From Deltaproteobacteria bacterium (GTDB lineage Bacteria > Myxococcota > Kuafuiibacteriia > Kuafuiibacteriales > Kuafuiibacteriaceae): a DNA stretch of 64,000 nucleotides. This document shows, in pieces, positions 30,935-48,124 of the stretch. Below the pieces are notes generated by a model, which saw nothing but the letters and a program-made list of their open reading frames with translations, was not told the origin of the DNA and did not search any database. The position numbers were made by a program, and so were the translations under genes. Within the stretch, counting starts at the first letter, position 1. The number at the start of each line of letters is the position of its first letter. The stretch spans positions 372,677-436,676 of the forward strand of contig JACKEN010000003.1 in NCBI GenBank assembly GCA_020632995.1, in the 5' to 3' direction.

Positions 30935-31651
30935 ATGACGCCCGTGCCCGCCCAGCTCCGACAGAGCGCCCTGGATCACTACGAAGAGATGGCTCGGCTC
31001 GGGCAGGCCTTCGGCAGCCCGGTCCGGCTCCGATTGCTGGATCTCTTGCGGCAGGCGCCGCGCAGCGTGGACGCGCTGAGTGAAGAGGCGGGCCTGCCGG
31101 TGGCGAACGTGAGCCAGCACCTGCGTCAGCTCCGCGCCGCTCACGTGGTGAGCTCCGAGCGCCAAGGCCAGCGGGTGATCTACCGACTCTCCGGACCGAT
31201 GGTGGCGTCGTTCTTCCTCGCGTTCCGAACGTTCGGCGAGATGCTCCTTCCGGAGCTGGATCGGTTGAAGAAAGACATCCAATCCGCCGAGCGCGGTCTC
31301 GCGCCCGACGAGTTCCGCCAGTTGCTCGATCGCGGCAAGGCCCTCGTGGTGGATGTGCGTCCGAACGAGGAGTACCATCACGCTCACTTCGACGACGCAG
31401 TCTCCATCCCGCTAGAGGAGCTGCCCAGCCGACTGCACGAGCTACCGAGGAGCAAGGTGGTGGTGCCCACGTGTCGAGGCCCTTACTGCCCTCTGGCCAT
31501 CCAGGCCGTGAGCCTGCTCCGTGAGGCCGGCTTCGAGGCCGCCCACTTCGATCTCGATGAATTTAGCGAGGGCATCGGCGTAGAGACGCCGATGGTCCCG
31601 CGGTCGGCCCCGACCAAGAAGGCCGCGGCTCGAAAGAAGAGGAGTTCATGA
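30935..31651 (+). CDS. ArsR/SmtB-family HTH transcriptional regulator fused to a C-terminal rhodanese domain
   Basis: Winged-helix region RLRLLDLLRQAPRSVDALSEEAGLPVANVSQHLRQLRAAHVV; C-terminal rhodanese fold with Cys loop VVVPTCRGPYC; stop overlaps next ATG (ATGA). Confidence 0.8.
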   Translation: MTPVPAQLRQSALDHYEEMARLGQAFGSPVRLRLLDLLRQAPRSVDALSEEAGLPVANVSQHLRQLRAAHVVSSERQGQRVIYRLSGPMVASFFLAFRTFGEMLLPELDRLKKDIQSAERGLAPDEFRQLLDRGKALVVDVRPNEEYHHAHFDDAVSIPLEELPSRLHELPRSKVVVPTCRGPYCPLAIQAVSLLREAGFEAAHFDLDEFSEGIGVETPMVPRSAPTKKAAARKKRSS

Positions 31652-32589
31652 ACATGCGTTGGATGATTCTTGGTGCTGCGCTCCTGTGGAGCGCCACCGC
31701 GCAAGCTGCTGACGAGTACTTCGTCTCCGTGGACGAGGCGAAGGCCCAGGTGGGCAAGGCCCGTTTCATCTGGGCCGACAAGGAGAGCGACTTCGAGAAG
31801 GAGCACATCCCGGGCTCCGGCATCGCCTACGCCCACGATCTGTCGATCCTGAGCGACGTGAAGGCCTGCAAGGGCCTGCCGCTCTGCGAGCCGGCCGCGG
31901 CCAAGCTGATCGGCCAGGAGCTCGGCATCGACAACGACACCGACGTCATCGTCTACGACGGCGGCGCGGGGGCAAACGCGAGCGGGATCTGGTTCCTGCT
32001 CAAGCTGTACGGCCACGACAAGGTCAAGATCCTGGATGGCGGCCTCGCCACCTGGAAGGCCCACGGCGGCAAGGTGGAGTCGGGGCACGCGGCCAAGGTG
32101 GCGGCCAAGTCGTTCACCCCCAAGGTGCAGTGGGACATGATCGCCAACGTCGACGAGGTCAAGAAGGCGACCGGCGACCAGGGGCACTACCTCCTGGTGG
32201 ACGCGCGCCACAACCTCGACGAGTACACCGGCCGCACCCTGCAGGCGGCCATGGCGGCGCCGGGCAAGGAGGCCACCGTGGCGCGCGGCGGCTACATCCC
32301 CACCGCGGTCTTCTCGCCGTGGAGCAAGTACGCTGGCAACAAGGGCGGCAAGGCCGACCAGCCCACCTTGAAGGACCAGAAGGAGCTGCAGAAGCAGCTC
32401 AAGAAGCTGTCGAAGAACGGCTACGCGCCGGACAAGACCGTCATCAGCTACTGCCACGTGGGCCTCGGCCGCGGCTCGTTCCAGTACCTCGCCCTCAAGA
32501 AGGCCGGGCACAAGAACGTGAAGCTCTACATCGGTTCCTGGAACGAGTGGGGCAACGACCCCTCCCTGCCCCTGGGCACCCAGCCCTGA
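31648..32589 (+). CDS. Secreted tandem-rhodanese thiosulfate/3-mercaptopyruvate sulfurtransferase
   Basis: Signal peptide; two rhodanese domains; catalytic loop YCHVGLGRG. Confidence 0.8.
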   Translation: MNMRWMILGAALLWSATAQAADEYFVSVDEAKAQVGKARFIWADKESDFEKEHIPGSGIAYAHDLSILSDVKACKGLPLCEPAAAKLIGQELGIDNDTDVIVYDGGAGANASGIWFLLKLYGHDKVKILDGGLATWKAHGGKVESGHAAKVAAKSFTPKVQWDMIANVDEVKKATGDQGHYLLVDARHNLDEYTGRTLQAAMAAPGKEATVARGGYIPTAVFSPWSKYAGNKGGKADQPTLKDQKELQKQLKKLSKNGYAPDKTVISYCHVGLGRGSFQYLALKKAGHKNVKLYIGSWNEWGNDPSLPLGTQP

Positions 32590-32605
32590 TCTGAAGGAGT
32601 ACGGC

Positions 32606-33730
32606 ATGACGTCGCTTCTCACCGGTCTTCTCACTGGCATGGGGTTCGGCATCCTCCTCTACAAGGTGGGCGCCACCCGGTACTCGCGGATCATGGGGAT
32701 GCTGACCCTCCGCGATACCAAGATCATGAAGTTCGCTTTCACCACCATCGCGGTGGCCTCCATGTTGTATGGGTTGGCGAGCCTCGCGGGCATCGCCAGT
32801 GACTGGAACCTCGAGACGCGCGTCATGCCGTTCATGGGCGGCGCCCACATCCTGGGCGGCATCCTGTTCGGCGCGTCGCTCGGCGTGACCGGGCTCTGCC
32901 CGGGCACCTGCGCCGCCAAGGCGGGCGGGCGCGCGGGCGAGAAGCGCTTCGTGCTCCCCGCCGCCCTCATCGGGCTCGTCCTCGGCGTGGTCATGTACGC
33001 CTGGCTGAAGGAGCCGCTGGTGGACGCGGGCATCGTGGCGCGGCCGCGGCAACTCACCTTGCACGGCTACCTCGGCCTCCCCTACGGCGTGGTGGCGGTC
33101 GTCTTCGGCGCGGTCATCATGACCATCGTCCTCGTCGTGGATCGCTTCACCCCCGAGAAGCGCTACGAGCCGGTGAAGGAGCGCCACTCGATCGTCGACT
33201 GGGTGCGGGGCGAGTGGAGCTTCCTCGCCTCCGGCACCATCGCCGGCCTCTTGATCGTGGGCGCCACCGCGCAGGGCGGGTACCTCGGCTTCTCCGGCTC
33301 CCTCCTCGCGCTGGTGGGCGCGGTGTCCAACGTCATCGGGATCAAGATGGCGGCGGTGCCGGTGGTGAACGACAGCATCCTCTGGCACTCCGGCCTGATC
33401 GTGGGGGCGCTGGTGGGTGGCTTCCTCTCCAGCCTGGTGTCCACGTACTCGAAGGGCTACGTCGGGGTCCCGAAGAAGAAGACCCTCGATCCGAAGGCCA
33501 TCGCCATCACCATGTCCGGCACCGCGATCATGGCGCTGGGCGCGATGGTGGGCGGCGGGTGCACGACCGGGGCCTTCCTCTCCGGCTGGCCGACCCTCTC
33601 GATCGGGAGCTTCGCCATGGCGATCACGTTCTTCGCCACCTCGATGGCGGTCTCGAACCTCCGCCTCCTGGTCGCGCACACCTACGACCTCAACGCCGCC
33701 CAGAAGATCGGCGAGCAGGTCTATGACTGA
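32606..33730 (+). CDS. YeeE/YedE-family sulfur-compound (thiosulfate) transporter
   Basis: Duplicated multi-TM architecture with conserved Cys-containing loops (GLCPGTCAA, GGGCTTGAF). Confidence 0.8.
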   Translation: MTSLLTGLLTGMGFGILLYKVGATRYSRIMGMLTLRDTKIMKFAFTTIAVASMLYGLASLAGIASDWNLETRVMPFMGGAHILGGILFGASLGVTGLCPGTCAAKAGGRAGEKRFVLPAALIGLVLGVVMYAWLKEPLVDAGIVARPRQLTLHGYLGLPYGVVAVVFGAVIMTIVLVVDRFTPEKRYEPVKERHSIVDWVRGEWSFLASGTIAGLLIVGATAQGGYLGFSGSLLALVGAVSNVIGIKMAAVPVVNDSILWHSGLIVGALVGGFLSSLVSTYSKGYVGVPKKKTLDPKAIAITMSGTAIMALGAMVGGGCTTGAFLSGWPTLSIGSFAMAITFFATSMAVSNLRLLVAHTYDLNAAQKIGEQVYD

Positions 33731-33734
33731 GGCA

Positions 33735-33865
33735 TGGAGCTGATGATGAGTCGTCAACTGCGGGTCGCCGCAATCATCGCCGTCGTGGTCCTCGCGGTGT
33801 CCTGGATCATGCTCCGACAGCACAACGCACAGGTCGCCGCTCCGGCGGCGGAGGCGCAGCAATGA
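33735..33865 (+). CDS. Small (43 aa) single-TM protein, translationally coupled to downstream rhodanese
   Basis: ATG with hydrophobic core VAAIIAVVVLAVSWIML; stop overlaps next ATG (ATGA). Confidence 0.3.
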
Positions 33866-34326
33866 AGAAGTTCGAGCCCTTCATCTACATCGTCCTCTTC
33901 GTGGTGTTCGGGGGCCTCGTGCTCTCCGAGGGCGCGAAGGCCGCGGCGCTCGATCGGTCCATCGCGCTGACCCCGAAGGAGCTGTACCGCAAGATCGCGA
34001 AGCGGGAAGGTGCCTTGCAGATCGTCGACGTGCGCGAGGACGTCGAGGAGAACTACGAGGACACCCACATCCCCGGCGCCATCCCCTTCCCCAACTGCGA
34101 CATGAAGGAGACGCCGGAGGGTGCGCGCGACCAGGTGGAGCCGTCGGTGCCCACCATCATCGTGTCCGGCGATGGCGATCAGGAGCTGTTCAACAAGTGC
34201 GCGGCGTACTTCACCTCCGCGCGTAACCTGGAGGGTGGGCTCGAGGCCTGGGACGACGAGAACCTCCCCGAGGATAGCGGTGAGTACCAGCCCCCCAAGG
34301 TGGGCGCGGGCGGCGGATGTCTGTGA
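33862..34326 (+). CDS. Membrane-anchored single-domain rhodanese-like protein (active-site Cys not evident)
   Basis: N-terminal TM; rhodanese fold pattern LQIVDVRE...THIPGAIPFP...PTIIVSGDGD. Confidence 0.6.
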   Translation: MKKFEPFIYIVLFVVFGGLVLSEGAKAAALDRSIALTPKELYRKIAKREGALQIVDVREDVEENYEDTHIPGAIPFPNCDMKETPEGARDQVEPSVPTIIVSGDGDQELFNKCAAYFTSARNLEGGLEAWDDENLPEDSGEYQPPKVGAGGGCL

Positions 34327-34336
34327 GGCGAGTGCG

Positions 34337-37225
34337 ATGACCATCTCGAGACGCGACGTACTGAAGAACATGGCCGCGGTGAGCGCGGGGGCCGCCGCGG
34401 TCTCCGCCCTGGACGGGCGCGCCCTGGCCAAGGGGCTCCCCAAGCCGGAGCGGCGGGACGATCCCCGCCATCACCCGCCGGCCAAGGAGACGTCGGTCGA
34501 GGCCATGTATCGGGCCGAGTTCGCCGAGACCTTCGGCGACGCGGGCGAGAAGGGCTTCGCGTACCACTGCGTGAACTGCCAGGGGAACTGCGCCTGGCAG
34601 GTCTGGAGCAAGGACGGCAAGGTCACCCGCGAGAACCAGAGCGCGTCCTATCCGCAGATCGCGGACGACATCCCGGACGCGAACCCGCGCGGCTGCAACA
34701 AGGGCGTGCAGCACAGCCAGATCATGTACTCGCAGGACCGCCTGCTCTACCCGATGAAGCGGGTGGGCGAGCGCGGCGAGGGCAAGTGGGCCCGGATCAG
34801 CTGGGACGAGGCCATCTCCACGGTGGCCGAGAAGCTCTACGACACGATGCTCCGGGTGGGCCCGGAGGGGAACTACATCCACGTCGGCGCGGGGATCCTC
34901 ACCGAGGCCAGGGCCGCGTCGGTGAAGCGCCTCGGGGCGCTGTTGGGCGCGGTGCGTCCGTACATCGCCTCCTATGTCGGTGACATGTTCCCTGGCGTCT
35001 CGGTGGTGTACGGCGAGGGCAACATCGGTTGCACCTTCGACTTCATCTACAAGTCGAACGTCGCGGTGTTCTGGGGCTGCAACCCCAACACCTCGCGCAT
35101 CCCGGACGCCCACTACCTGTGGGAGGGCAAGTACAACGGCTGCAAGGTCGTGGTGATCACCCCAGAGTTCAACTCCACCGCGATCCACGCCGACCTGTGG
35201 GTGCCGGTGAAGCCGGGCGGCGACGGCCACCTGGCCATGGCCATCATGAACCGGATCGTGAAGCGGCGGCTCCACAACCCGAAGTTCCTGGCCACCTACA
35301 CCGACCTGCCGCTCCTGGTCCGCGAGGACAACGGCAAGCTCCTCACCCTCCACGACGTGGACGCCGAGGCCCTCGACTCGAAGCTAGTGGAGCTGTTCGG
35401 TGAGGACGAGGCGAAGCACCACGAGGTCTTCCTCGCCTGGGATCAGCGCACCAAGAAGGCGGTGCCGCTGCCCGGCTGCGAGGGGAGCGCGGTGCCGACG
35501 CTGCGCCTGAAGGACAACGCCTGGAACATCTCCCCCGCCCTGAAGGGCACCTACAAGGTGAAGCTCTCGGACGGGAGCATGGTCACCGTGAAGCCGGTGT
35601 ACGAGCGCTTCGAGCAGGAGCTGGCCGCGTTCGCGCCCGAGAAGGTGCAGGCGATCACCGGCGTCCACCCGAAGGTGGTGGACGAGCTGGCGGTCGACCT
35701 CGCCAAGTCGAAGACCGCGGTCATCACCCTCGGCTTCGCGGTGGGCAAGCACTTCAACGGCATGCTCTCGCAGCGCGCGATCTCGACCCTGGCCGCGCTG
35801 TCCGGGAAGCTCGGCCCCAACGGCGGCATCAACTCCGAGAACGAGTGGAACATCACCGGCCTCGGCGGCCTGAGCAGCTTCGATGGGCGCTTCGTGCACC
35901 GCTTCGCGTCCGGCTTCACCTCCGAGTTCATGCTCGGCGATGGCCTGAAGACCTACGACAAGGGCTTCGCGGACGAGGACGTGAGGCGCGCCACCGGGAT
36001 GTCCAAGTCGGACTACAAGTCCCGGGTGGAGCAGATGCTCACCAAGGGGAAGAACGACGACGGCTACAAGGACGGCGGCAAGCCGTACTGGACCACGGTC
36101 GAGACCTTCTTGATGTTCGCGGACTCCCGGTTCCGTCGGAACAAGGGTGAGTACAAGGAGGCCTTCCTCGAGAAGGCCAAGTTCATCGCCTACGGCGACA
36201 TCCGCATGAGCGACTTCGCGCAGTACGCGGACGTGCTCCTGCCCTGCAAGTCGCACTACGAGGTCTGGGACATCCGGACCAACCCCGGCTACCACCGCTT
36301 CGCGAACATCGCGTACCCGCCGCCCCACCTCGAGAACGTGGGTGAGGCGAAGAGCGAGTGGGAGATCTCGACCCTCATCGTGGAGAAGATGGAGGCCCTG
36401 GCCAAGGCGCGCTACGCCAAGACCAAGGACGAGAAGGACATCAAGATCCCGGACGAGACCCACACCCAGGAGGGCTTCCGGCCCATGGGTGAGCTCGTCA
36501 AGGAGTTCACCCAGGACGGGAAGGTGCGCACCGACCGCGAGGCGGTGGAGTACGCGCTCGAGCACGTCGACCAGTTCAAGCCGAACACCATCCAGACGGT
36601 GTACGACCGCGGCGGGTTCCTGCAGCTCAACGACAAGTCCGGCAAGTCGAGTCCGCTCTATGCGGACCGGCCCTACAACACGTTCGAGAGCCAGCTGTAC
36701 TTGTTCCAGCGCTTCGACACCGTCAGCGGGCGGCTCACGTTCTACGTGGACCACCCACTGTGGGTCGAGATGGGGGCGGCGATCGTCACCGCGCGGGAGC
36801 CCATCCGGCCGAAGAAGTACCCGCTGGCCCTAATGACCCCGCACGCGCGGTGGTCGATCCACTCGACGTACAAGACCTCGCCGACCCTGCTGCGTCTGCA
36901 GCGCGGCAAGCCGTACGTCATGATCAACCCCGAGGTGGCGGCGTCCCGCGGCATCGCGGACGGCGACGACGTCCGGATGTTCAACGACCTGGGCGACACC
37001 GTGTTGATGGCGAAGCTGGTGCCCGGCGTGCCGAAGAACGCGGTGGTGATGGAGCACGGCTGGGAGCCCTTCATGTTCCGCGGCCGCAAGGGGCAGAACG
37101 TCCTCGTGGGCGACATGCTCAACTTGCTTGAGCTCAGCGACGGGTGGGGACACCTGAAGTTCGGCACCAACTGGGACGGGAACCAGCACGCCTACGACGC
37201 CACCGTCGAGCTGGCGAAGGTCTGA
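34337..37225 (+). CDS. Tat-exported molybdopterin (Mo-bisPGD) oxidoreductase catalytic alpha subunit, type II (NarG/EbdA/SerA/DdhA-like)
   Basis: Twin-arginine signal MTISRRDVLKNMAAVSAGAAA; FS0 motif AYHCVNCQGNCAW...PRGCNKG aligns with NarG HGVNCTGSCSW...PRGCPRG (His-x3-Cys-x3-Cys); RLLYPMKR matches NarG RLKYPM; about 962 aa. Confidence 0.85.
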   Translation: MTISRRDVLKNMAAVSAGAAAVSALDGRALAKGLPKPERRDDPRHHPPAKETSVEAMYRAEFAETFGDAGEKGFAYHCVNCQGNCAWQVWSKDGKVTRENQSASYPQIADDIPDANPRGCNKGVQHSQIMYSQDRLLYPMKRVGERGEGKWARISWDEAISTVAEKLYDTMLRVGPEGNYIHVGAGILTEARAASVKRLGALLGAVRPYIASYVGDMFPGVSVVYGEGNIGCTFDFIYKSNVAVFWGCNPNTSRIPDAHYLWEGKYNGCKVVVITPEFNSTAIHADLWVPVKPGGDGHLAMAIMNRIVKRRLHNPKFLATYTDLPLLVREDNGKLLTLHDVDAEALDSKLVELFGEDEAKHHEVFLAWDQRTKKAVPLPGCEGSAVPTLRLKDNAWNISPALKGTYKVKLSDGSMVTVKPVYERFEQELAAFAPEKVQAITGVHPKVVDELAVDLAKSKTAVITLGFAVGKHFNGMLSQRAISTLAALSGKLGPNGGINSENEWNITGLGGLSSFDGRFVHRFASGFTSEFMLGDGLKTYDKGFADEDVRRATGMSKSDYKSRVEQMLTKGKNDDGYKDGGKPYWTTVETFLMFADSRFRRNKGEYKEAFLEKAKFIAYGDIRMSDFAQYADVLLPCKSHYEVWDIRTNPGYHRFANIAYPPPHLENVGEAKSEWEISTLIVEKMEALAKARYAKTKDEKDIKIPDETHTQEGFRPMGELVKEFTQDGKVRTDREAVEYALEHVDQFKPNTIQTVYDRGGFLQLNDKSGKSSPLYADRPYNTFESQLYLFQRFDTVSGRLTFYVDHPLWVEMGAAIVTAREPIRPKKYPLALMTPHARWSIHSTYKTSPTLLRLQRGKPYVMINPEVAASRGIADGDDVRMFNDLGDTVLMAKLVPGVPKNAVVMEHGWEPFMFRGRKGQNVLVGDMLNLLELSDGWGHLKFGTNWDGNQHAYDATVELAKV

Positions 37226-39487: not shown

Positions 39488-39488
39488 C

Positions 39489-41847: not shown

Positions 41848-42711
41848 ATGAACTCTGCTGTCGTCACCCTGGACGTCCTGCACTCCGGAGTCATCTGGGG
41901 CTGGTACGTCACCATGAACTTCTGGGCCAAGAGCATCGCCACCGGCGTGATCCTCCTGGCGCCCTGGCTCCTGAAGCGCTCCGAGAACCCGCAGCTGCGC
42001 TTCCTCACCGCGGGGGTGGGCTTCGTCTTCTTGAACATCACACTGCTGTTCACCGTGTTGGACCTGCACCAGCCCTTCAGGTTCTGGCACATGTTCGTGC
42101 ACCCGCACTTCACGAGCGTCATCAACATCGGGGCGTGGATCCTCACCGCCCTGAACGGCCTGTTGGTGCTCCACCTGTTCATGGCGTGGCGCAAGCGCGA
42201 CGCGCTCTACGACAAGCTCCTGCCGGTGACCTGGTTCGTGGCCTTCCTCGCCACGATCTACACCGCGGGCCTGCTCGGGCAGGCGAACGCGCGTGAGATC
42301 TGGCAGGCGCCGGCCGAGGTGGCCCAGATGATCCTGGCCGCCACCCTCTCGGGCAGCGCGGTGTTCCTGCTCATCGGGGGCGGCGACGCAGAGATCAAGC
42401 GGCACCTCGGCACCGTCCTCGGGGTCTCCGCCCTCGTGGCGCTGAGCATCTTCCTCGCGGAGATCTTCCTCGCCCCCCAGAAGTCCGAGGAGGCCGAGTA
42501 CCTGATCCACATCCTGGTCTCGGGTCAGCTCAGCGGGCTGTTCCTGGGCGGTCTGGTGGTGGGCTTCGTGGCGCCGGCGGTGCTCGCCTATGTCGGGGTT
42601 CGCAAGAACCAGGCAGGGCTCCTTGCGCTGGCCAGCGTGATGGGCCTGGTCGGCCTGTGGCTGGTGAAGCACGCGTGGCTCATCGCGCCCCAGCTCATCC
42701 CCCTCAGCTGA
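41848..42711 (+). CDS. NrfD/PsrC-family integral membrane quinol-interacting anchor (TtrC-like)
   Basis: Eight predicted TM helices; NrfD-like pattern; ATG one base after the B-subunit stop. Confidence 0.8.
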   Translation: MNSAVVTLDVLHSGVIWGWYVTMNFWAKSIATGVILLAPWLLKRSENPQLRFLTAGVGFVFLNITLLFTVLDLHQPFRFWHMFVHPHFTSVINIGAWILTALNGLLVLHLFMAWRKRDALYDKLLPVTWFVAFLATIYTAGLLGQANAREIWQAPAEVAQMILAATLSGSAVFLLIGGGDAEIKRHLGTVLGVSALVALSIFLAEIFLAPQKSEEAEYLIHILVSGQLSGLFLGGLVVGFVAPAVLAYVGVRKNQAGLLALASVMGLVGLWLVKHAWLIAPQLIPLS

Positions 42712-42730: not shown

Positions 42731-45700
42731 ATGGCGACCCATCGACGAACCTTCCTCAAGGCAGCCACCATCTCCACCGGCGCCGCAGCGGCGCTGGTGG
42801 GCTCGATCCGGTCCTTCATCCCCAAGGCCCGGGCCGGTGAGTCCGTGGCGACCAAGTACGACAAGCTCCCCGTGGTGAACGGGAACCTGGAGCGCTACCC
42901 GCCGTTCGAGAAGTGGAACGGTTGGCGCGAGATGGACGGTGACGACTGGAAGCGTGGCGGCATCCTGCGCCACGACGTGAAGGTCAACGACTACATGTTG
43001 GTCCCGACCGTCTGCAACAACTGCGAGGCGGTGTGCGGCCTGACCGCGTGGGTCGACAAGGAGACCCTCACCGTCCGGAAGTACATGGGCAACCCGCTCC
43101 ACACCGGGAGCCAGGGTCGCAACTGCGCCAAGGGCTACGCGGTGCTCACGCAGATGTACGATCCCGACCGGATCCCGTTCCCGCTCAAGCGGGCCCCCGG
43201 GACCAAGCGCGGCGACGGCAAGTGGGTGCGCACCACCTGGGACGAGGCCATGGCCACCATCGGTGGCAAGATGCGCGAGGCCCTCTCCAAGGGCGATGAG
43301 TTCACCAAGAAGTCCATCATGCACCACGTGGGCCGGCCCAACGAGTCCGGGTTCACGCCGCGGGTGTGGGCGAGCCTGGGGCAGGACTTCCAGAACAGCC
43401 ACACCAACATCTGCTCCGCGAGCGGGCGCTTCGGGAGCCTGTTGTGGGCGAACGACGACCGCAGCTCCTCGGACTGGTCCAACGCGCGGCTGATCTTCCT
43501 GATCTCCTCCCACGCGGCGGACGCGGGCCACTACTTCCAGCAGTCGGCGCGGCAGATCGCCGAGGCGCGCAAGAAGGGCGCCAAGCTGGTGGTGCTCGAC
43601 CCGCGCCTGTCCAACTCCGCCGGCATGGCGGATCTGTGGATCCCGTGCTGGCCCGGGAGCGAGGCGGCAATCCAGCTTGCCATCGCTGGGCGGCTGATCA
43701 AGGAGCGCCGCTACAACCGTGAGTTCGTCCGCCGGTGGTGGAACTGGCAGGACTTCATGGCGTCCAAGGACACCCACCAGCTCCTCCTCGAGCAGGGCTT
43801 CATCACCAAGCTGCCCGCGGGTGAGGGCTTCGAGGCCTTCGAGGCCTTCATGGAGGACATGTACGGCGCCTACACCCTCGAGTGGGCGGCGGAGCAGGCG
43901 CGGGTCCCGCTCTCCAAGCTCGAGACGCTGTACGAGTACTTCCTGTACGCGGGCGACCGCGTGGCGAGCTTCCACTGGCGGGCGACCGCGGCGGGGAACC
44001 GGGGCGGCTGGATGTCGTCGTCCCGCACCGGCATCTTCCTGATCAGCCTCCTCGGTAACTACAGCGGCGTCGGCGCGCTGGGCTACCACCACGGGCGCGA
44101 GATCGCGGTGGCGGGAAAGGGCGGCAAGAGCACGGTGGGCGAGAAGCCGCCGAAGGTGGACGAGTGGAACGACCTGTCGTGGCCGCCGGAGTGGCCGCTC
44201 GCCTCTTATGAGCTGAGCTTCCTGTTGCCGCACCTGTTGACCGACACCGACTGGCAGCAGAAGTGGCGCGACAAGGGGCTCACCGTGCCCTCCAAGATCC
44301 CGGTGTACTTCCCGCGGATGTACAACCCGGTGTGGATCAACCCGGACGGCTTCCGGTGGATCGAGGTGCTGCGGGACGAGTCCAAGATCGAGCTCGCGAT
44401 CAACCCGTCGCCGATCTGGTCCGAGACCAACTGGTTCATGGACTACATCCTCCCCACCGGCCTGTCGGGGGAGCGGCACGACCAGCACTCCGAGCCCACC
44501 AACACCGAGGCCTGGGTGGCGTTCCGTCAACCTGTCTTGCGCGCGGCGCTCGAGAAGATGGGCTGGGAGCCCAAGGACCCGGCGCGGGCCACGTTGGAGG
44601 CCCACATGAAGGCGGGCCTGGGTGAGATCTGGGAGGAGAACGAGTTCTTCATCAACCTCCTGTTCCACCACGTGGATCCGGACGGCGCCCTCGGGATCCG
44701 GCAGTACTGGGAGAGCCGGGCCCGCCCCGGCAACCCGGTGACGATCGCCGAGTACTATGACGCCGCCTTCGGCACTCTGCCCGGCCTGACCAAGGCCGCG
44801 AAGGAGGCCGCGGCCAAGAAGGCGAAGGACGCCAAGACGCCGGAGGAGAAGAAGCTCGCGGCGTTCGCGGCCCAGCACCCCTGCTACGACATGATGCGGG
44901 ACCGGGGCGCCTGGACCGAGCACGTCGACGTCTTCAACCAGTACGAGGAGGAGCTCGAGGTCGACGAGGCCCGCGGCGTGGTGAAGACGAAGGCGATGGA
45001 CGTCTTCGGCGGCGCCGTCGAGTACCCGATCAAGAGCGTCAAGACGGACCCGAAGACCCAGCAGCTCTACGTCGAGACGCCCGAGGGGCGCCACAACGTC
45101 GGCGTGGTGGGCGAGCGCGGGGGCTGGGAGGTCGGCTTCCCCACCCCGAGCCGCAAGATGGACTTCTTCGCCGGCTGGATGAAGGACTGGGGTTGGCCGG
45201 AGTACACCATCCCGATCTACCCGCGCACCAAGGCCCAGATGGACAAGATGATCCACCTGGTCTCCCACGTGCACCATCAGTACATGACGGAGGAGAACGC
45301 GTTCGCCCTGAACCCGATCTTCCGCCTCTCGTACAACATCCACACCCGCGGCGTGAACTCGAAGTGGCTGCAGGAGATCAGCCAGAACCACGCGCCCCTG
45401 TGGATCAGCATGCAAGACGCCCGGCGGATGGGCCTCGGTCGCGGTGACCCGGTCAAGGTGCGGGTGGTCGACACGCTCTCCGGCAAGGAGTCGGGCTACT
45501 TCGTGGCCATGGCGATGCCCACCGAGGGCATGGCGCCCGGGGTGCTGTCCTGCAGCCACCACGCCGGCCGGTGGCGCGTGGTGGACAAGGTCGACATCTC
45601 GGGCTTCGAGCAGCCGCTCCACATCATGCGGGCCGGCAGCCCGCAGGCGGAGCTGAAGGAGGAGGGCTCGACGCAACGCAGCCTGCGCTACACGAAGGGC

Positions 45701-46081
45701 ATCGAGGCCTTCCTCCCCACGCCCACCAAGGAGTTCGGCGACAAGGGCTGGCCCTTCGCCGCGGTCAACCAGGACCTCGACAACATCAGCTGGGACGGCC
45801 TGAGCGGGGTCTGGCAGAACGCCACGCACCACCCGCACCCGGATCCGATCTCCGGCATGCACTGCTGGCACCAGAAGGTGCTGCTCGAGAAGGCGGGGCC
45901 GGGCGACCGGATCGGCGACCTCAAGGTCGACATCTCGGCCACCTACGCCACCTACCAGGCCTGGCGTGACGAGCTCACCCGGCCGGCGCCGGGGCCGGGC
46001 GGCCTGCGCCGACCCGAGCACCTGAAGCGCCCGTGGGTCGCGATCACCCGCGACGCCTACAAGATGAAGACCAAGGCGTGA
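42731..46081 (+). CDS. Tat-exported molybdopterin oxidoreductase catalytic subunit, TtrA/SrdA-like (gene order B-C-A)
   Basis: Twin-arginine signal MATHRRTFLKAATISTGAAAA; 4Fe-4S motif CNNCEAVCGL...GRNCAKGY (Cx2Cx3C...C); about 1116 aa; B-C-A order matches ttrBCA/srdBCA-type operons. Confidence 0.8.
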   Translation: MATHRRTFLKAATISTGAAAALVGSIRSFIPKARAGESVATKYDKLPVVNGNLERYPPFEKWNGWREMDGDDWKRGGILRHDVKVNDYMLVPTVCNNCEAVCGLTAWVDKETLTVRKYMGNPLHTGSQGRNCAKGYAVLTQMYDPDRIPFPLKRAPGTKRGDGKWVRTTWDEAMATIGGKMREALSKGDEFTKKSIMHHVGRPNESGFTPRVWASLGQDFQNSHTNICSASGRFGSLLWANDDRSSSDWSNARLIFLISSHAADAGHYFQQSARQIAEARKKGAKLVVLDPRLSNSAGMADLWIPCWPGSEAAIQLAIAGRLIKERRYNREFVRRWWNWQDFMASKDTHQLLLEQGFITKLPAGEGFEAFEAFMEDMYGAYTLEWAAEQARVPLSKLETLYEYFLYAGDRVASFHWRATAAGNRGGWMSSSRTGIFLISLLGNYSGVGALGYHHGREIAVAGKGGKSTVGEKPPKVDEWNDLSWPPEWPLASYELSFLLPHLLTDTDWQQKWRDKGLTVPSKIPVYFPRMYNPVWINPDGFRWIEVLRDESKIELAINPSPIWSETNWFMDYILPTGLSGERHDQHSEPTNTEAWVAFRQPVLRAALEKMGWEPKDPARATLEAHMKAGLGEIWEENEFFINLLFHHVDPDGALGIRQYWESRARPGNPVTIAEYYDAAFGTLPGLTKAAKEAAAKKAKDAKTPEEKKLAAFAAQHPCYDMMRDRGAWTEHVDVFNQYEEELEVDEARGVVKTKAMDVFGGAVEYPIKSVKTDPKTQQLYVETPEGRHNVGVVGERGGWEVGFPTPSRKMDFFAGWMKDWGWPEYTIPIYPRTKAQMDKMIHLVSHVHHQYMTEENAFALNPIFRLSYNIHTRGVNSKWLQEISQNHAPLWISMQDARRMGLGRGDPVKVRVVDTLSGKESGYFVAMAMPTEGMAPGVLSCSHHAGRWRVVDKVDISGFEQPLHIMRAGSPQAELKEEGSTQRSLRYTKGIEAFLPTPTKEFGDKGWPFAAVNQDLDNISWDGLSGVWQNATHHPHPDPISGMHCWHQKVLLEKAGPGDRIGDLKVDISATYATYQAWRDELTRPAPGPGGLRRPEHLKRPWVAITRDAYKMKTKA

Positions 46082-46686
46082 TGGAGGCCCAGGGGCGCGC
46101 CAACCTCTACGGCTTCTTCTCCCGGCTGTTCATCCGGGAGCTCGACGACGAGGCGGTGGCGCTGTTGGCGGGGCCGCTCGGGCAAGATCTCTTGCCCGAG
46201 GCCACCGCGGCGGGGGACGTGGCGCTGGCCGCCGACCCCGCCCGTCGGCACGCGGTGCTGGACCCCGACTACACCCACATCACGGTGGTGAACGTGGTGC
46301 CCTACGCCTCGTTCTACCTGCGCGACGACGCCATGGTGGAGGGCGGCACGGCGAACCCGGCGGCGGAGTTCCTGAAGGAGTACGGCTTCGAGGTGGATCT
46401 GGTGGCGGCGCGCTCGCTCGCGCCCGACCACATCGGGATCCTGCTCGAGAGCATGGCGGTGCTCGCCAACGCCGAGGCGGAGGCCGAGGCGCGTCCGGAC
46501 CCTGCCTACGCGGCCCGGATCCGGCAGGTGCAGCGCACGTTTCTGCAGGACCACCTGCTCTCCTGGGCGCCCGTCTACCTGTACGCGGTGGAGCGCTGCG
46601 CGCACAGCACCCTCTACCGCGAGGCGGCCAGCGTGCTGATGGACTTCCTCGGGAGCGACGCCCAGGACCTGGAGGCAGAGGCGTGA
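46081..46686 (+). CDS. TorD/DmsD/NarJ-family molybdoenzyme maturation chaperone
   Basis: Size and helical pattern of REMP chaperones (LYGFFSRLFIRELD...); start overlaps TtrA-like stop. Confidence 0.65.
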   Translation: MEAQGRANLYGFFSRLFIRELDDEAVALLAGPLGQDLLPEATAAGDVALAADPARRHAVLDPDYTHITVVNVVPYASFYLRDDAMVEGGTANPAAEFLKEYGFEVDLVAARSLAPDHIGILLESMAVLANAEAEAEARPDPAYAARIRQVQRTFLQDHLLSWAPVYLYAVERCAHSTLYREAASVLMDFLGSDAQDLEAEA

Positions 46687-47762
46687 ACACCGCCCTCGGG
46701 CTGACCTACGAGGCGTGCGTGCGCACGCTCTCCCGGAGCGCCACCTGCACCGTTTGCCGCGACGCCTGCCCGGTGCGGGCGGTGGGCCTGGAGGGCATCC
46801 GGGGCTCGGTGACGGTGGCCCTCGACCGCTGCACCGGCTGCGGCCTGTGCAGCGCCGCCTGCCCCACCGACGCCTTCACCGCGCCCTTCGCGCTGGGCGA
46901 GGTGCTGGCCGGCTCGGACGGGCAGCTCGCCTGCGGGCAAGGTGGCTTGCCGTGCATCGGCGCCCTGTCGGCCGAGGACCTCATCGCCCTCGCCACCCGG
47001 GTGAAGGTGGTGGCGCTCCACGACGGCCCCTGCGCCTCTCGGGAGCCCGGCCACCACGCGGCCGCGGCGCGGGCGGCCGAGGCCCAGGCCTTCCTCGACG
47101 CGGTGGGGATCAAGGCCACCGTCTCCTTCGCGCCGGCCGAGGCGCTCCCGCCCGCGGCCGATCGTCGCCCGGAGGCGGCGGAGCCGGCCAAGGCCCCCGA
47201 GGTGTCGGCGGAGCGCCGCCGGATGCTGCGGATGCTGGTGCCCACCCTCAAGCAGGGCCCGAAGGAGGTCTTGCAGCAGCCCGATCGCCTGGACCGAGCC
47301 CGGATGCAGCAGCTCCCCGAGCGGCGTCGGCGCCTCCTCGCCGCGCTGCCGCCCGGGGTGGAGGCCCGGGAGGCCACTGTGCCCACCGCGACGCTGGGCT
47401 TCGTGTCGAGCAAGCAGGTCGACGAGCACGCCTGCACCGCCTGCACGGTGTGCTTCAGCGTGTGCCCCACCGGGGCGCTGCAGGCCCCCCGCTCGCTGAA
47501 GGAGCTGCGCTTCGACACCAGCCGCTGCACCCGGTGCGGGCTCTGCCACGACGTCTGCGAGCCGGACGCCCTGCGCCTGGCCCCCGAGACCTCGCTGGAG
47601 GACTTCCTGGAGTTCACCCCGCGGGTTCTGGCCCGGCTGCCGGTGACCCGCTGCGGGGAGTGCGGCCTGCCCTACAACCGGGCCGAGGGCTCGGCGGGGC
47701 TGTGTCCACGGTGTTGGGCGATGGAGGAGGAGGCCATGGACCTGAGCGGAGGCAACCGATGA
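46683..47762 (+). CDS. Poly-ferredoxin-like protein with multiple 4Fe-4S CxxCxxC(xxx)C motifs
   Basis: At least four Cys clusters (CTVCRDACP, CTGCGLCSAACP, CTACTVCFSVCP, CTRCGLCHDVCEP) plus C-terminal CGECG...CPRC. Confidence 0.7.
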   Translation: MNTALGLTYEACVRTLSRSATCTVCRDACPVRAVGLEGIRGSVTVALDRCTGCGLCSAACPTDAFTAPFALGEVLAGSDGQLACGQGGLPCIGALSAEDLIALATRVKVVALHDGPCASREPGHHAAAARAAEAQAFLDAVGIKATVSFAPAEALPPAADRRPEAAEPAKAPEVSAERRRMLRMLVPTLKQGPKEVLQQPDRLDRARMQQLPERRRRLLAALPPGVEAREATVPTATLGFVSSKQVDEHACTACTVCFSVCPTGALQAPRSLKELRFDTSRCTRCGLCHDVCEPDALRLAPETSLEDFLEFTPRVLARLPVTRCGECGLPYNRAEGSAGLCPRCWAMEEEAMDLSGGNR

Positions 47763-48124
47763 TGCCCGAAGGCCCCCTGGACGAGATGGCGGCGGATCTC
47801 GTGATCCCGGCCAAGAGCGGGATCTACATCGCCAAGAGCGAGGTGATCGTGCTCGCCCACCTGGTGGAAGGTAGCTTGCGGGTGAACGAGCGTCGCCGCA
47901 TGCTCGCCGACGTCCTGAAGTCGCCGGACTCCCTCGAGGGGCTCATGGCCCTGGTGAGCCGCCTGATGGACTTCACCCAGGCCCACCTGGACCGCTACGC
48001 AGAGCTGGCGGAGGCGTTCCCGGCCATGGCCCCCTCGCTCGCGCCGTGGCGCGAGAAGGCCGCGCGCACCCTGGGGCGGCTGGCCGATGTCCGGGAGCAG
48101 ATGGAAGACGAGACCGAGCTCTGA
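47759..48124 (+). CDS. Hypothetical protein (about 121 aa) terminating the oxidoreductase cluster
   Basis: ATG ATG overlapping upstream stop; coding-like composition; no motif. Confidence 0.45.
   Translation: MMPEGPLDEMAADLVIPAKSGIYIAKSEVIVLAHLVEGSLRVNERRRMLADVLKSPDSLEGLMALVSRLMDFTQAHLDRYAELAEAFPAMAPSLAPWREKAARTLGRLADVREQMEDETEL

Follow-up and report, generated by a model that had tools for sequence, protein, structure and literature searches.

Two conserved molybdoenzyme modules joined in one tightly packed gene block of a Myxococcota bacterium may act on sulfur compounds

Introduction

A 64-kb stretch of DNA from a member of the Myxococcota (the window) carries a run of plus-strand genes in which two molybdoenzymes are encoded together with rhodaneses, a YeeE-type transporter and maturation proteins. 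This raises the questions of whether these genes form a single unit and what such a unit would do.

Results

Plus-strand coding was continuous over 30935-48124 in a GC3 frame plot, which bore out the co-directional cluster proposed in a preliminary description. The block is bordered by minus-strand genes (25948-30714 and 48134-49450), and the flanking genes of the window lie on the opposite strand and are unrelated to it. Every junction previously named as overlapping was found to overlap (Table 1), and the g1/g2, gS/g4, g6/g7, g8/g9 and g9/g10 overlaps were seen again in the gene calls of homologous loci. The coding share of the span reaches 99.4% because 4-nt overlaps occur at 8 of the 16 junctions, a frequency judged within one 64-kb window, and the remaining gaps measure only 0, 1, 3, 10, 13, 16, 19 and 45 nt. 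Overlaps of 4 nt (ATGA or GTGA) are commonplace where operon genes of GC-rich bacteria are translationally coupled, and those of the block are tight operon packing that in itself is not unusual. No promoter-like or terminator-like sites beyond shuffled expectation were found inside the block. In place of the 18 genes originally claimed, 17 could be supported, namely 16 ORFs backed by family or frame evidence and the 43-aa ORF at 33734-33865 (gS). We regard gS as a real gene because a 40-52-aa single-helix ORF of the same architecture lies at its position in 17/17 homologous loci, across phyla; its counterpart was called as a gene in loci L083, L084 and L088-L090. The block was divided into module A (g1-g10, 30935-41166) and module B (g11-g16, 41212-48124). 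For none of its proteins was a characterised close relative found.

Table 1. Features of the block, with the overlap between each gene and the next
Feature	Position	Strand	Description	Support	Overlap with next gene
Palindrome	30910..30929	+	Operator-like ATTCAATTAATCAATTGAAT	Inverted repeat; ends 5 nt ahead of g1 start codon	
g1	30935..31651	+	ArsR/SmtB-type HTH + rhodanese domain fusion, 238 aa, cytoplasmic	Pfam HTH_5/HTH_20 + Rhodanese	ATGA
g2	31648..32589	+	Secreted tandem-rhodanese sulfurtransferase, 313 aa	Pfam Rhodanese 86 bits, two stretches	
g3	32606..33730	+	YeeE/YedE-family sulfur-compound transporter, 374 aa	Pfam Sulf_transp, 87.4 bits	
gS	33734..33865	+	43-aa single-transmembrane peptide	Stop overlaps g4 start	ATGA
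g4	33862..34326	+	Membrane-anchored or secreted rhodanese-fold protein, 154 aa	Pfam Rhodanese 43.7 bits	
g5	34337..37225	+	Alpha subunit, type II DMSO-reductase-family molybdoenzyme, 962 aa, twin-arginine signal	TIGR03479 781 bits, under the curated cut-off of this type II alpha model	
g6	37239..38288	+	Beta subunit, four Fe-S clusters, 349 aa	TIGR03478 516.8 bits, above cut-off 480.7	GTGA
g7	38285..39487	+	Gamma subunit, secreted, 400 aa	Pfam EB_dh 45 bits + Cytochrom_C 41 bits	
g8	39489..39899	+	Secreted 136-aa protein, small unnamed family	C-terminus ...PKPKAGGFKGCL-COOH	GTGA
g9	39896..40789	+	Mrp/ApbC/NBP35-type Fe-S cluster carrier ATPase, 297 aa	Pfam ParA (NUBPL) 275 bits	ATGA
g10	40786..41166	+	Small secreted monohaem cytochrome c, 126 aa	Pfam Cytochrom_C 48 bits, Cytochrome_CBB3 44 bits	
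g11	41212..41847	+	Four-cluster Fe-S subunit B, 211 aa, without signal peptide	Pfam Fer4_11	
g12	41848..42711	+	NrfD/PsrC-type integral membrane quinone-interacting subunit C, 287 aa	Pfam NrfD 69.3 bits	
g13	42731..46081	+	Catalytic subunit A, Cys-ligated molybdoenzyme, 1116 aa, twin-arginine signal	Pfam Molybdop_Fe4S4, Molybdopterin, Molydop_binding	GTGATG
g14	46078..46686	+	TorD/NarJ-family chaperone for Tat-exported molybdoenzymes, 202 aa	Pfam Nitrate_red_del 60.3 bits	GTGA
g15	46683..47762	+	Cytoplasmic polyferredoxin, NapF-like, 359 aa	Pfam Fer4 families	ATGATG
g16	47759..48124	+	Predicted 121-aa cytoplasmic protein, last gene of the block	No Pfam or NCBIfam match	

Module A opens with a g1 homologue in L083, L088, L089 and L090 and in at least 13 metagenome loci. 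The g1 protein scored 71.3 bits against the NCBIfam ArsR/SmtB subfamily (cut-off 55); its HTH domain contains no Cys, and C180 and C185 of its rhodanese loop are invariant in 5/5 homologues. It is a probable regulator responsive to sulfane sulfur. The palindrome ahead of g1 occurs once in the window, with 0.01 matches expected by chance, and is a candidate, predicted binding site for this regulator. TTCAA..TTGAA palindromes of similar form lie upstream of the g1 homologues in L088 and L083 and are absent upstream of those in L089 and L090. The transporter g3 scored 46.8 bits against the TsuA equivalog, far under the cut-off of 400; its family membership suggests a role in sulfur import that may serve sensing rather than catabolism. 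In H. denitrificans, the YeeE-like SoxT1B signals to the ArsR-type repressor SoxR, and the SoxT1A locus likewise encodes a rhodanese and a single-helix peptide that lacks Cys (PMC11582611). The sulfur-handling role initially read into the first genes fits both the family assignments and this YeeE-like/ArsR-type precedent.

The best solved relatives of g5 were PcrA (4ydd, 401 bits) and then EbdA (2ivf, 326 bits). It carries an HX3CX3C motif, and an Asp aligns with the Mo-ligand position of both enzymes. Ahead of this Asp, PcrA reads D-W-Y-G-D, with an aromatic pair that we take to be a substrate gate, whereas g5 reads A-S-Y-V-G-D. Against the EbdA model g5 scored 351 bits (cut-off 2000), and against Kuenenia NXR A only 93 bits. 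The g7 protein combines a haem-b (EB_dh) domain with a fused cytochrome c domain at its C-terminus, whose CxxCH cysteines are kept in 19/19 sequences. The g9 protein scored 237 bits against MrpORP and 219 bits against ApbC, each under its cut-off, and in 27 of 46 metagenome loci a homologue is the next gene downstream of g8. In many metagenome loci, as in L083, L088, L089 and L090, the last gene of module A is a g10 homologue. Known type II operons encode a NarJ-like delta chaperone, but none belongs to module A. The 64-kb window contains no genes for an aa3 oxidase and no SorA, Sox or Moco genes.

Three further proteins of module A are secreted or membrane-anchored. The N-terminus of g2 reads as a signal-like sequence, its active-site Cys269 is invariant (14/14), and it matched the ExtH rhodanese of a selenite/tellurite reduction operon weakly (53.5 bits, cut-off 200). 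In g4, as read from the sequence, a Ser occupies the active-site position in place of the canonical catalytic Cys. Its C-terminus is ...PPKVGAGGGCL-COOH; GGGGCL ends were found in 14/14 homologues, and C79, C113 and C153 are invariant (15/15). The g8 protein matched no family in Pfam or NCBIfam and belongs to a tiny one, with 35 cluster representatives among 1.84 billion proteins, whose C-termini read FKGCL (or SKACL) in all but two divergent members. Its AF2 model (pLDDT 80) is an OB-like barrel with a low-confidence, disordered tail; it has no significant match among known folds and differs from the SoxY and DsrC folds. A g8 gene was found only adjoining gamma, directly after it in 48/48 loci. 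The penultimate-Cys ...GCL-COOH tails of g4 and g8 resemble the TusE/DsrC tail. g8 is a candidate sulfur carrier. That the tail cysteines of g4 and g8 carry sulfur is a tentative idea, which we rate somewhat short of an even chance; we put it forward because these ends are kept across phyla and the g8 tail is modelled as disordered, because g4 has lost the rhodanese Cys yet keeps the tail Cys, because the tiny g8 family occurs only beside gamma, and because E. coli TusE, which is known to relay persulfides, ends in ...PKPVKCI-COOH. Separately, such C-terminal cysteines could form a structural disulfide, bind metal or serve regulation.

In module B, the best NCBIfam match of g11 was TtrB (194 bits, cut-off 416), and g13, which belongs to an unnamed lineage, stayed far from the cut-off of every NCBIfam family. 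g13 aligns to PsrA (2vpw) over residues 91-337 only, with Cys228 falling on the Mo-ligand Cys of PsrA/ArrA, and homologues 52-84% identical to it occur in Myxococcota, Aquificota and Campylobacterota. TorD follows subunit A in 49 of 65 loci and the polyferredoxin follows TorD in 47 of 65. g15 has four 4Fe-4S motifs and then a C-terminal CxxC...CxxC, and scored 49.6 bits against napF (cut-off 102). Maturation roles of g14, g15 and the Mrp protein g9 are predicted from family membership. No Pfam or NCBIfam match was found for g16. Downstream of module B, a g16 homologue is present in 6/6 cases in Myxococcota and at 23 loci in Campylobacterota. The B-C-A gene order is common to the Ttr/SrdA lineage (PMC7331816). 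Module B is probably the family termed PsrA1B1C1 in Sulfurovum studies; the Mo-ligand Cys is placed at 247/257 in the Sulfurovum paper and at 248-251 in the Sulfurovum homologues of g13. In those studies PsrA1B1C1 was assumed, by homology only, to be a polysulfide reductase, and its expression showed no significant difference when sulfur reduction was compared with nitrate reduction. Whether module B acts on polysulfide-type (S-S bonded) substrates is, in our estimate, evenly balanced.

Both the joined block and its separate halves recur in other genomes. The whole block is conserved elsewhere: it is complete, with different flanks, in one other assembly (L088) and on one metagenome contig (L094), and near-complete in Myxococcota MAGs (L005-L008), where no Mrp or cytochrome c gene stands between A and B. 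In Aquificota, module B stands behind module A, co-directional and packed, in 9/9 loci, again without these two genes. The A-B order and strand are conserved across two phyla. The module A gene order recurs in dozens of loci, and in all loci and across phyla alpha/beta/gamma are surrounded, in an unvarying order, by the rhodaneses, YeeE, the small peptide and the two tailed proteins. Module A occurred without module B in 22 of the 24 loci anchored on its genes, and it stands alone in L083, L084, L089, L090 and most g8-anchored metagenome loci; module B occurred without module A in 46/46 Campylobacterota loci. In 14 of the 24 loci an aa3 oxidase operon (SCO1-COX2-COX1-COX3) directly follows module A on the same strand, in the place of B. 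At least 10 loci have a gene of the sulfite-oxidase family no more than 7 kb from g8, often immediately behind it. Among the organisms that carry the block are the sulfur-oxidising Sulfurihydrogenibium and Persephonella. The preliminary description had taken the block for a single co-regulated functional unit and its break-up in relatives as a sign of accident. The modules do separate in many genomes, so the block is not one indivisible unit, yet it is not accidental either, because the complete arrangement recurs beside different flanking genes.

Discussion

Sulfur is quite likely the substrate class of the two modules, since the block encodes a YeeE transporter and three proteins with a rhodanese fold and since sulfite-oxidase-family genes are neighbours and sulfur oxidisers are among the carriers. 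Module A probably runs in the oxidative direction, because an aa3 oxidase so often follows it and because it has both an extra cytochrome c domain on gamma and a soluble cytochrome c. The following steps are proposed from family membership and neighbourhood, with inferred substrates. The secreted rhodanese g2 would mobilise sulfane sulfur from thiosulfate or polysulfide, and the sulfur would move onto the penultimate Cys of g4 and g8. The g5-g7 enzyme would oxidise the carried sulfur with an oxygen atom transferred from water, and electrons would pass through five Fe-S clusters, haem b and the fused cytochrome c domain to g10 and a terminal oxidase; sulfite would be the likely product or intermediate. 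YeeE and gS would import a sulfur signal that g1 would read via its rhodanese cysteines. Module B would supply a Cys-ligated enzyme of the Psr/Ttr type that is linked to quinone, is served by maturation factors of its own and works in reduction or oxidation.

The two modules might instead serve sulfur disproportionation, with A oxidising sulfane sulfur and B reducing as a polysulfide/sulfur reductase, or form a dual-use island with which the cell could oxidise and/or reduce polysulfide by redox conditions; rhodaneses, carriers, regulator and maturation factors would be common to both. Persephonella and some Sulfurihydrogenibium both oxidise and reduce elemental sulfur, the modules are packed together in all Aquificota loci, and module B shares with PsrA the NrfD quinol-interacting subunit and Cys ligand besides its probable identity with PsrA1B1C1. 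However, module A electrons enter cytochrome c, from which their return to quinol for B would be uphill, module A loci are mostly paired with an oxidase and not with B, and the Sulfurovum assignment has the basis and expression pattern given above. We consider either version unlikely. Selenium (or arsenic) oxyanion respiration is improbable. Here cytochrome c would feed electrons to g5-g7 as a selenate reductase of the SerABC type, B would be a Srd/Srr-like selenate or selenite reductase, and reduced selenium would be dealt with by the rhodaneses, the YedE-type transporter and the Cys-tailed proteins. YedE has been connected with selenium metabolism, and selenate and arsenate are respired by some species of Sulfurihydrogenibium; the weak ExtH match of g2 and the B-C-A gene order also agree, as does the presence of selenate reductase among type II enzymes (PMC2500031). 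Yet the aa3 oxidase operon after module A speaks for an electron-donating rather than an electron-accepting role, genes of the sulfite-oxidase family are often found nearby, and no selenium- or arsenic-specific genes were found in or near any locus inspected. The block is also present in S. yellowstonense SS-5 (L025), which to our knowledge is described with O2 as the only acceptor.

That module A is another type II enzyme, such as a (per)chlorate reductase, nitrite oxidoreductase or DMS/hydrocarbon dehydrogenase, with sulfur-transfer genes as mere neighbours, is very improbable. PcrA and ethylbenzene dehydrogenase are the closest solved relatives of g5, and DMS dehydrogenase is a type II enzyme able to oxygenate a sulfur atom. 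However, the sulfur-transfer genes are not loose neighbours because their order is fixed in every locus across phyla, no chlorite dismutase occurs in the loci inspected (including L083, L084 and L088-L090), the NXR A and EbdA scores are low, and the residues before the Mo-ligand Asp differ from those of PcrA. Accidental juxtaposition of unrelated same-direction genes could draw on the modules occurring alone and on the missing Mrp and cytochrome c between them in L005-L008 and Aquificota, but recurrence with different flanks, conserved order and strand, overlaps at half of the junctions, 99.4% coding and unrelated opposite-strand neighbours leave it the faintest of chances. It is contradicted by the synteny data.

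The best reading of the whole, which might equally well hold or fail, is a periplasmic system (A) that oxidises sulfane sulfur with the aid of carriers and is fused to a Psr-like enzyme linked to quinone (B). Against it stand the g5 score under the type II alpha cut-off with a perchlorate reductase as nearest solved relative, the lack of a NarJ-like delta chaperone in module A, a g8 that is neither SoxY-like nor DsrC-like, and the absence of aa3 oxidase, SorA, Sox and Moco genes from the window. If module B is a reductase, an operon shared with the oxidative module A needs an extra explanation. In this reading the block is one tightly coupled operon that joins two autonomous, widely conserved modules. 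Module A, of which no published description was found, appears to be a so far undescribed system for sulfur oxidation, centred on two proteins with a flexible-tail Cys.

Results

A tightly packed block of 17 genes

Because the window has a G+C content of ~70%, raw ORF lists were crowded with spurious frames, and genes were therefore called from third-position G+C using a sliding frame plot, with starts picked at frame switches and the translations inspected. The frame plot showed plus-strand coding without interruption throughout the block, and the adjoining genes on either side lie on the minus strand. A preliminary description of this DNA had placed all genes of the block on the plus strand and listed a series of start/stop overlaps, and both statements hold, every listed overlap being present in our junction table; its count of 18 genes, however, has to be lowered to 17 (16 ORFs, g1 to g16, and a 43-aa ORF, gS). 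Genes overlap by 4 nt at 8 of the 16 junctions (ATGA or GTGA, two also readable as TGATG) and the remaining gaps are 0, 1, 3, 10, 13, 16, 19 and 45 nt, so that the 17,190-nt span is 99.4% coding. Promoter-like and terminator-like sites within the block did not rise above shuffled expectation (at or below chance). The overlaps, gaps that never exceed 45 nt and the lack of terminator-like sites above chance would indirectly favour one transcript for all 17 genes. Since start/stop overlaps are ordinary in translationally coupled operons of GC-rich bacteria, those found here show tight packing and are in themselves not odd.

The genes were assigned using Pfam and NCBIfam family searches and solved-structure searches, and are divided here into module A (g1 to g10 and gS) and module B (g11 to g16). 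The only sizeable non-coding DNA near the block is a 220-nt low-GC stretch upstream of g1. The third-position G+C of g1 is 0.82, compared with 0.92–0.97 in the other 16 genes; the stop of g1 nonetheless overlaps the start of g2. The flanks of the block are unrelated to it and encode an alpha-2-macroglobulin-like protein, an FAD monooxygenase, an MBOAT protein and a POT transporter. The first of these is a 1588-aa bacterial protein with MG2, A2M, bait region and TED domains, seemingly unrelated to the cluster.

Features of the block and of homologous loci (L numbers, in other assemblies or metagenomes); coordinates without an L number are those of the window
Feature	Location	Description
Upstream flanking gene	25948-30714, minus	alpha-2-macroglobulin-like protein
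Low-GC stretch	30715-30934	non-coding, upstream of g1
Palindrome	30910-30929	candidate operator
Block	30935-48124, plus	g1 to g16 and gS
Module A	30935-41166, plus	g1 to g10 and gS
g1		ArsR/SmtB HTH and rhodanese domain fusion
g2		tandem rhodanese, secreted
g3		transporter, YeeE/YedE family
gS	33734-33865	single-helix peptide, 43 aa
g4		rhodanese-fold protein, anchored
g5, g6, g7		type II DMSO-reductase-family enzyme: alpha, beta, gamma
g8	39489-39899	136 aa, secreted, without family
g9		Fe-S carrier, Mrp/ApbC
g10		cytochrome c, small
Module B	41212-48124, plus	g11 to g16
g11, g12, g13		second molybdoenzyme: B (four-cluster), C (NrfD), A (1116 aa)
g14		chaperone, TorD family
g15		polyferredoxin
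g16		121 aa, without family
Downstream flanking gene	48134-49450, minus	
Spacer, g8 to subunit B	L006 7902-8456; L007 8018-8456; L008 8030-8455	430–550 nt without convincing plus-strand ORF
Rearranged module A	L170 4408-13400	g4-g5-g6-g7-g8-g2-g3-Mrp
Tandem YeeE genes	L010 3-1818	two copies
Genes around module A	L083 871-6074	divergent sulfite-oxidase-family, Pyr_redox_2 (SQR/FCC-like) and DsrE genes
Genes around module A	L084 5658-6851, 15509-22916	MoeZ-like ThiF-rhodanese, MobA, MoaE, MoaD, MoeA, MOT1 molybdate transporter, MoaC, MoaA
253–286-aa protein	L005 14903-15754; L007 15267-16127; L086 15216-15977	between polyferredoxin and g16 homologue, no Pfam match
Sulfurovum g13 homologue	L076 9938-13282	

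Two modules that occur together and apart

The locus is also present in the MAG GCA_020430745.1 (L001, found with the beta subunit), where the contig stops inside module B. An alignment of g13 homologues (A1) was scanned against one genome per species, and the window proteins were mapped by tblastn onto the resulting 80 loci and tallied. In Aquificota, the genes g2-g3-g4-g5-g6-g7-g8-g11-g12-g13-g14-g15 follow each other in window order at all nine loci with enough upstream sequence; the carriers are Hydrogenothermaceae, Persephonella and Sulfurihydrogenibium, including the cultured S. yellowstonense SS-5 (L025). Four of the six Myxococcota loci have the same order of g2-g8 and g11-g15. All 46 loci from Campylobacterota (Sulfurimonas, Sulfuricurvum, Sulfurovum) hold g11-g12-g13 only, usually with g14 and g15 and often with g16.

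Loci anchored on g5 gave the view from the other module. The full window arrangement recurs with other flanks in L088, whereas in L083 and L090 g1-g10 are followed by SCO1 and COX2-COX1-COX3-COX4, L089 holds g1-g10 alone, and in L084 g2-g8 adjoin molybdenum-cofactor biosynthesis genes and a sulfite-oxidase-family gene. A metagenome scan anchored on g8 yielded 80 further loci. The g8 gene directly follows gamma in 48/48 g8-anchored loci, the series alpha-beta-gamma-g8 is found in all those of at least 6 kb that reach upstream of g8, and the full g1-g8 order in 13. Of the 24 loci anchored on g5 or g8 that extend 6 kb or more downstream of module A, 14 have an aa3 oxidase operon immediately behind it on the same strand, 2 have module B and 8 have neither. 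Eight of the tallied g8-anchored loci carry a sulfite-oxidase-family gene no further than 7 kb from g8, often directly after it, and L083 and L084 have one near module A as well. The preliminary description had taken the block for a single co-regulated unit, to be judged by its conservation in relatives. The outcome is mixed, because synteny keeps the whole block in close relatives and even across phyla, yet modules A and B each occur alone; the block is a fusion of two independently living modules.

Several loci differ in detail. In L006, L007 and L008 a spacer replaces the Mrp and cytochrome c genes of the window, and Mrp is encoded downstream, on the other strand. The spacer could be an internal promoter region; as it parts the modules there, loci other than the window may have a break between A and B. 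In the rearranged L170 the rhodanese and YeeE genes stand behind g8. The genes found around module A in L083 and L084 are listed in the table.

A divergent type II molybdoenzyme in module A

The alpha subunit g5 begins with a twin-arginine signal (MTISRRDVLKNMAAVSAGAAA) and carries the HX3CX3C FS0 motif (YHCVNCQGNC), which aligns with the FS0 region of PcrA. In the solved-structure alignment, SYVGDMFPG of g5 was matched to WYGDHPTG of PcrA and DIGDTYMG of EbdA, and we take the aligned Asp to be at the Mo-ligand position of these established structures. The beta subunit g6 passes TIGR03478 (516.8 against a cut-off of 480.7) and the gamma subunit g7 passes Pfam EB_dh (45 against 33.3), but alpha stays below TIGR03479 (781 against 984.75), gamma stays below TIGR03477 (89.8 against 169.85), and g5 is far below the EbdA model (351 against 2000). 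On these scores g5-g7 are placed as a divergent member of the broad type II family, with no named enzyme as their equivalog. Common to g5-g7 and DdhABC, EbdABC, SerABC and PcrAB are a Tat-exported alpha subunit, the HX3CX3C cluster motif and an Asp Mo ligand; a four-cluster beta subunit, a secreted EB_dh haem-b gamma subunit and electron exchange with c-type cytochromes are likewise shared with type II enzymes. In contrast to the known type II enzymes, g7 is unusual in having a cytochrome c domain fused to gamma, and g5-g7 are always embedded among rhodanese-fold genes, a YeeE gene and the genes of two Cys-tailed proteins. Module A also differs in lacking a delta (NarJ-like) chaperone: no gene of this type was found in module A in the window, L083, L084, L089 or L090, and the sole TorD-family gene, g14, belongs to module B and reaches 41.5 on the type II chaperone model, whose cut-off is 152.3.

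Two proteins with a C-terminal cysteine tail

The ends of g8 and g4 form a common tail in all homologues that could be read, from Myxococcota to Aquificota, apart from two divergent g8 sequences. The consensus is ...PKPKxGxFKGCL-COOH for g8 and ...EYxPPKxxGGGGCL-COOH for g4; in the window, g8 ends in ...PKPKAGGFKGCL and g4 in ...PPKVGAGGGCL. FKGCL or SKACL is the extreme C-terminus of 14 of the 16 g8-family sequences retrieved. Searched exhaustively with a profile, 1.84 billion cluster representatives yielded only 35 members of this family; one distant relative (P0288) lies on a 960-nt contig with an uninformative gene neighbourhood. The AlphaFold2 model of g8 (pLDDT 80) consists of an OB-like barrel and a low-confidence, unstructured tail, and comparison with PDB folds returned no significant structural neighbour. 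Besides the tail Cys135, C41 and C57 are invariant in 23/23 aligned g8 homologues and could form a structural disulfide or serve as resolving cysteines. As read from its sequence, g4 has Ser at the usual rhodanese catalytic-Cys position and keeps three invariant Cys, the tail Cys153 among them.

We compared these tails with three known systems. E. coli TusE ends in ...GLPKPVKCI, and the C-terminal arms of g8 and g4 resemble those of TusE and DsrC in their Pro-Lys-Pro, short linker, penultimate Cys and one hydrophobic residue; no Pfam or NCBIfam match and no sequence homology to DsrC/TusE was detected in g8 or g4. DsrC and TusE are cytoplasmic and mainly helical, whereas g8 and g4 have signal or anchor sequences that mark them as secreted or membrane-anchored, with an OB-like fold in g8 and a rhodanese fold in g4. 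In the Sox system, SoxY, the partner of SoxZ, carries its reactive Cys on a C-terminal GGCGG arm, and SoxCD, a periplasmic molybdoenzyme, passes its electrons to cytochrome c. The likeness to Sox is one of working only, in that a small secreted protein bears a Cys on a flexible Gly-rich C-terminal arm and its gene lies beside that of a periplasmic molybdoenzyme feeding cytochrome c. The tail is GCL and not GGCGG, the g8 model is OB-like and does not have the Ig-like SoxY fold, g5-g7 belong to the DMSO reductase family and not, as SoxCD, to the sulfite oxidase family, and no Pfam or NCBIfam match to Sox families (SoxAX, SoxB, SoxZ) was found in the block. In Wolinella, the Sud rhodanese presumably serves Psr with sulfur, and the Aquifex rhodanese SbdP reportedly goes with sulfur reductase and SOR; module A is similar in that rhodanese-fold proteins are encoded with sulfur enzymes that they presumably supply with sulfane sulfur. 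Unlike Sud and SbdP, however, there are two secreted rhodanese-fold proteins here together with a tailed non-rhodanese protein, and one of the two is catalytically dead in the usual sense and bears a Cys tail.

Regulator and transporter genes

The ArsR/SmtB winged-helix domain of g1 is recognized by NF033788 (71.3 against a cut-off of 55) and by Pfam HTH_5/HTH_20, and g1 fails the BigR model (34 against 155). Sulfane-sulfur sensors of the ArsR family (SoxR/sHdrR, BigR and SqrR type) use a Cys pair. Residues 1–120 of g1 have no Cys, so that its HTH domain, unlike that of SoxR/sHdrR-type sensors, is Cys-less, and two invariant cysteines, Cys180 and Cys185, sit in the fused rhodanese domain instead. 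A perfect AT-rich palindrome, ATTCAATTAATCAATTGAAT (ATTCAATT-AATC-AATTGAAT), which is unique in the window, stops 5 nt before the start codon of g1. This candidate operator for autoregulation by g1 has relatives, TTCAA..TTGAA palindromes, upstream of the g1 homologues of L088 and L083.

The transporter g3 passes Pfam Sulf_transp (87.4 against 27) and fails the TsuA equivalog (46.8 against 400), and gS is kept in position and architecture at 17/17 loci. Two tandem YeeE copies were observed in one Hydrogenothermaceae locus (L010). In Hyphomicrobium denitrificans, a Cys-less single-helix protein and a rhodanese adjoin the YeeE-like SoxT1A, and the YeeE-like SoxT1B signals to SoxR (PMC11582611). 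Like that system, the block combines a YeeE-family transporter with an ArsR-type regulator and presumed sulfur-oxidation genes, and gS and the rhodanese gene next to the transporter parallel the neighbours of SoxT1A (PMC11582611). Since the catabolic enzyme is periplasmic, import through YeeE may serve signalling alone.

The Cys-ligated molybdoenzyme of module B

A twin-arginine signal and the cluster motif CX2CX3C...C are both present in the catalytic subunit g13, whose Cys228 aligned to the Mo-ligand Cys position of PsrA and ArrA; we take the ligand cysteines of these two to be Cys173 and Cys193. No more than the first third of g13 aligned to a solved structure, with residues 91–337 of 1116 as the sole part matching PsrA (2vpw); an AlphaFold2 model from an 11-sequence alignment (pLDDT 51) was judged unusable, and g13 had no exact-sequence match in the assembly index. 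No named NCBIfam model comes near its cut-off (PhsA 124/694, ArrA 76/1600, TtrA 62/1750), and module B is also below the cut-offs of TtrB (194 against 416) and TtrC (30 against 314). Pfam Fer4_11 in g11 and NrfD in g12 indicate a four-cluster B subunit and an NrfD-type C subunit. The gene order is B-C-A, which has been reported for the Ttr and ‘Unk’ clades, and TtrB bears a Tat signal (PMC2500031); g11 starts with MRLGFLVDLDLCMGC, without a twin arginine, and in this is unlike TtrB. PsrABC and PhsABC have the order A-B-C and no full-length similarity of their A subunits to g13, which at 1116 aa is also unlike the 765-aa PsrA of T. thermophilus. A Tat-exported A subunit with a CX2CX3C...C cluster, a Cys Mo ligand, a four-cluster B and an NrfD-type C are shared with Psr, Phs, Ttr and Arr, but the accompanying TorD, polyferredoxin and 121-aa protein are not. 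Judged from these sequences, module B encodes an enzyme of the Psr/Ttr/Arr kind, quinone-linked and Cys-ligated, which could reduce polysulfide or, running in reverse, oxidize sulfide. The enzyme is 52–58% identical over three phyla and is present in most of the Sulfurimonas, Sulfuricurvum and Sulfurovum genomes sampled; our literature search found no published demonstration of its substrate.

Module B probably corresponds to Sulfurovum ‘PsrA1B1C1’ (group I), with which it shares the ligand Cys position: Cys 247/257 are published for PsrA1 (PMC10045233), and the Sulfurovum homologues have theirs at 248–251. When each ORF is translated from its first Met, these g13 homologues (L076 to L079) plainly show a twin-arginine motif (for example ...EGRRSFLKGTAYSVAG). 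This contradicts the published statement on what is probably the same gene, for which the absence of a Tat motif was concluded and the enzyme placed in the cytoplasm (PMC10045233). The MOLY cluster of sulfur disproportionators (MolyA, MolyB and the TorD-type MolyC), compared by its description, was set aside; it is described without NrfD and in Desulfobacterota. In some Myxococcota and Sulfurimonas loci, the gene of a 253–286-aa protein lies between those of the polyferredoxin and of the g16 homologue; the window and L058, in which g15 and g16 overlap directly, lack it.

Discussion

The anatomy of the block, its cofactor motifs, conservation and modularity, the oxidase linkage and the tails are observations; from gene content, neighbouring genes and hosts we infer that module A is oxidative and acts on sulfur. 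An electron-donating dehydrogenase fits better than a reductase because the cytochrome c domain fused to gamma and the small cytochrome c g10 are mostly accompanied by an aa3 oxidase of the module's own and a copper chaperone. Sulfur is suggested as the substrate class by the three rhodanese-fold proteins, YeeE, the frequent sulfite-oxidase-family neighbours and the sulfur-oxidizing hosts.

The strongest rival to this reading is a dual-use or disproportionation island in which module A oxidizes and module B reduces; it agrees with the Psr label of module B but is energetically difficult, as electrons would have to pass from cytochrome c to quinol. Respiration of selenium or arsenic agrees with the enzyme families and with a weak ExtH match, but it does not fit the oxidase linkage and is at odds with the sulfite-oxidase-family neighbours. 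That module A serves some other type II function is unlikely, given an enzyme always embedded between sulfur-transfer genes, and chance juxtaposition of the genes is excluded by synteny.

For sulfur oxidation by module A, two precedents can be named: DMS dehydrogenase is a type II enzyme that oxygenates sulfur, and SoxCD oxidizes carrier-bound sulfane sulfur. By analogy with these two, g2 would put sulfane sulfur on the tail cysteines of g4 and g8, g5-g7 would oxygenate the tail-bound sulfur with water, and sulfite or sulfate would be released. Much as SoxT1B signals to SoxR, YeeE and gS would probably relay a sulfur signal inward to g1, and Mrp, TorD and the polyferredoxin would, from family membership, be maturation factors. 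Put at its fullest, module A would be a third periplasmic carrier-protein pathway of sulfur oxidation, alongside Sox but distinct from it and so far unrecognized, with persulfide held on the penultimate Cys of two tail proteins, a type II enzyme oxygenating it with water, and a cytochrome c/aa3 chain; we regard this full version as possible but rather doubtful.

All its large components come from known superfamilies, so the block does not amount to a new category of system. What marks module A as new is the fixed 10–11-gene unit, the g8 family, the common ...GCL tails, the fusion of a Cys-less ArsR domain to a rhodanese, and the direct coupling to an aa3 oxidase operon. None of these features, and no description of module A or of the tailed proteins, was found in the full-text literature, including DMSO-reductase-family phylogenies and papers on MOLY/YTD sulfur disproportionation, Aquificales metagenomes, chlorate reductase, Thioalkalivibrio and vent metaproteomics, a search whose incomplete coverage makes this weak evidence.

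The packing of the block is ordinary; its content is a widespread, cross-phylum, uncharacterized sulfur system, module A being spread among thermophilic Aquificota and uncultured Myxococcota of soils and wetlands, and the invariant ...GCL tails are a concrete mechanistic handle that can be tested by mass spectrometry and point mutants. If module A oxidizes carrier-bound sulfur, its DMSO-reductase-family dehydrogenase would be a new class of dissimilatory sulfur-oxidation enzyme, replacing SoxCD, rDsr or sHdr. A gene set now labelled generically as ‘DMSO reductase type II’ or ‘selenate/chlorate reductase’ by metagenome pipelines would then have a function, the sulfur-oxidizing potential of soils, wetlands and hot springs would be scored differently, and the Myxococcota would gain a lithotrophic trait.
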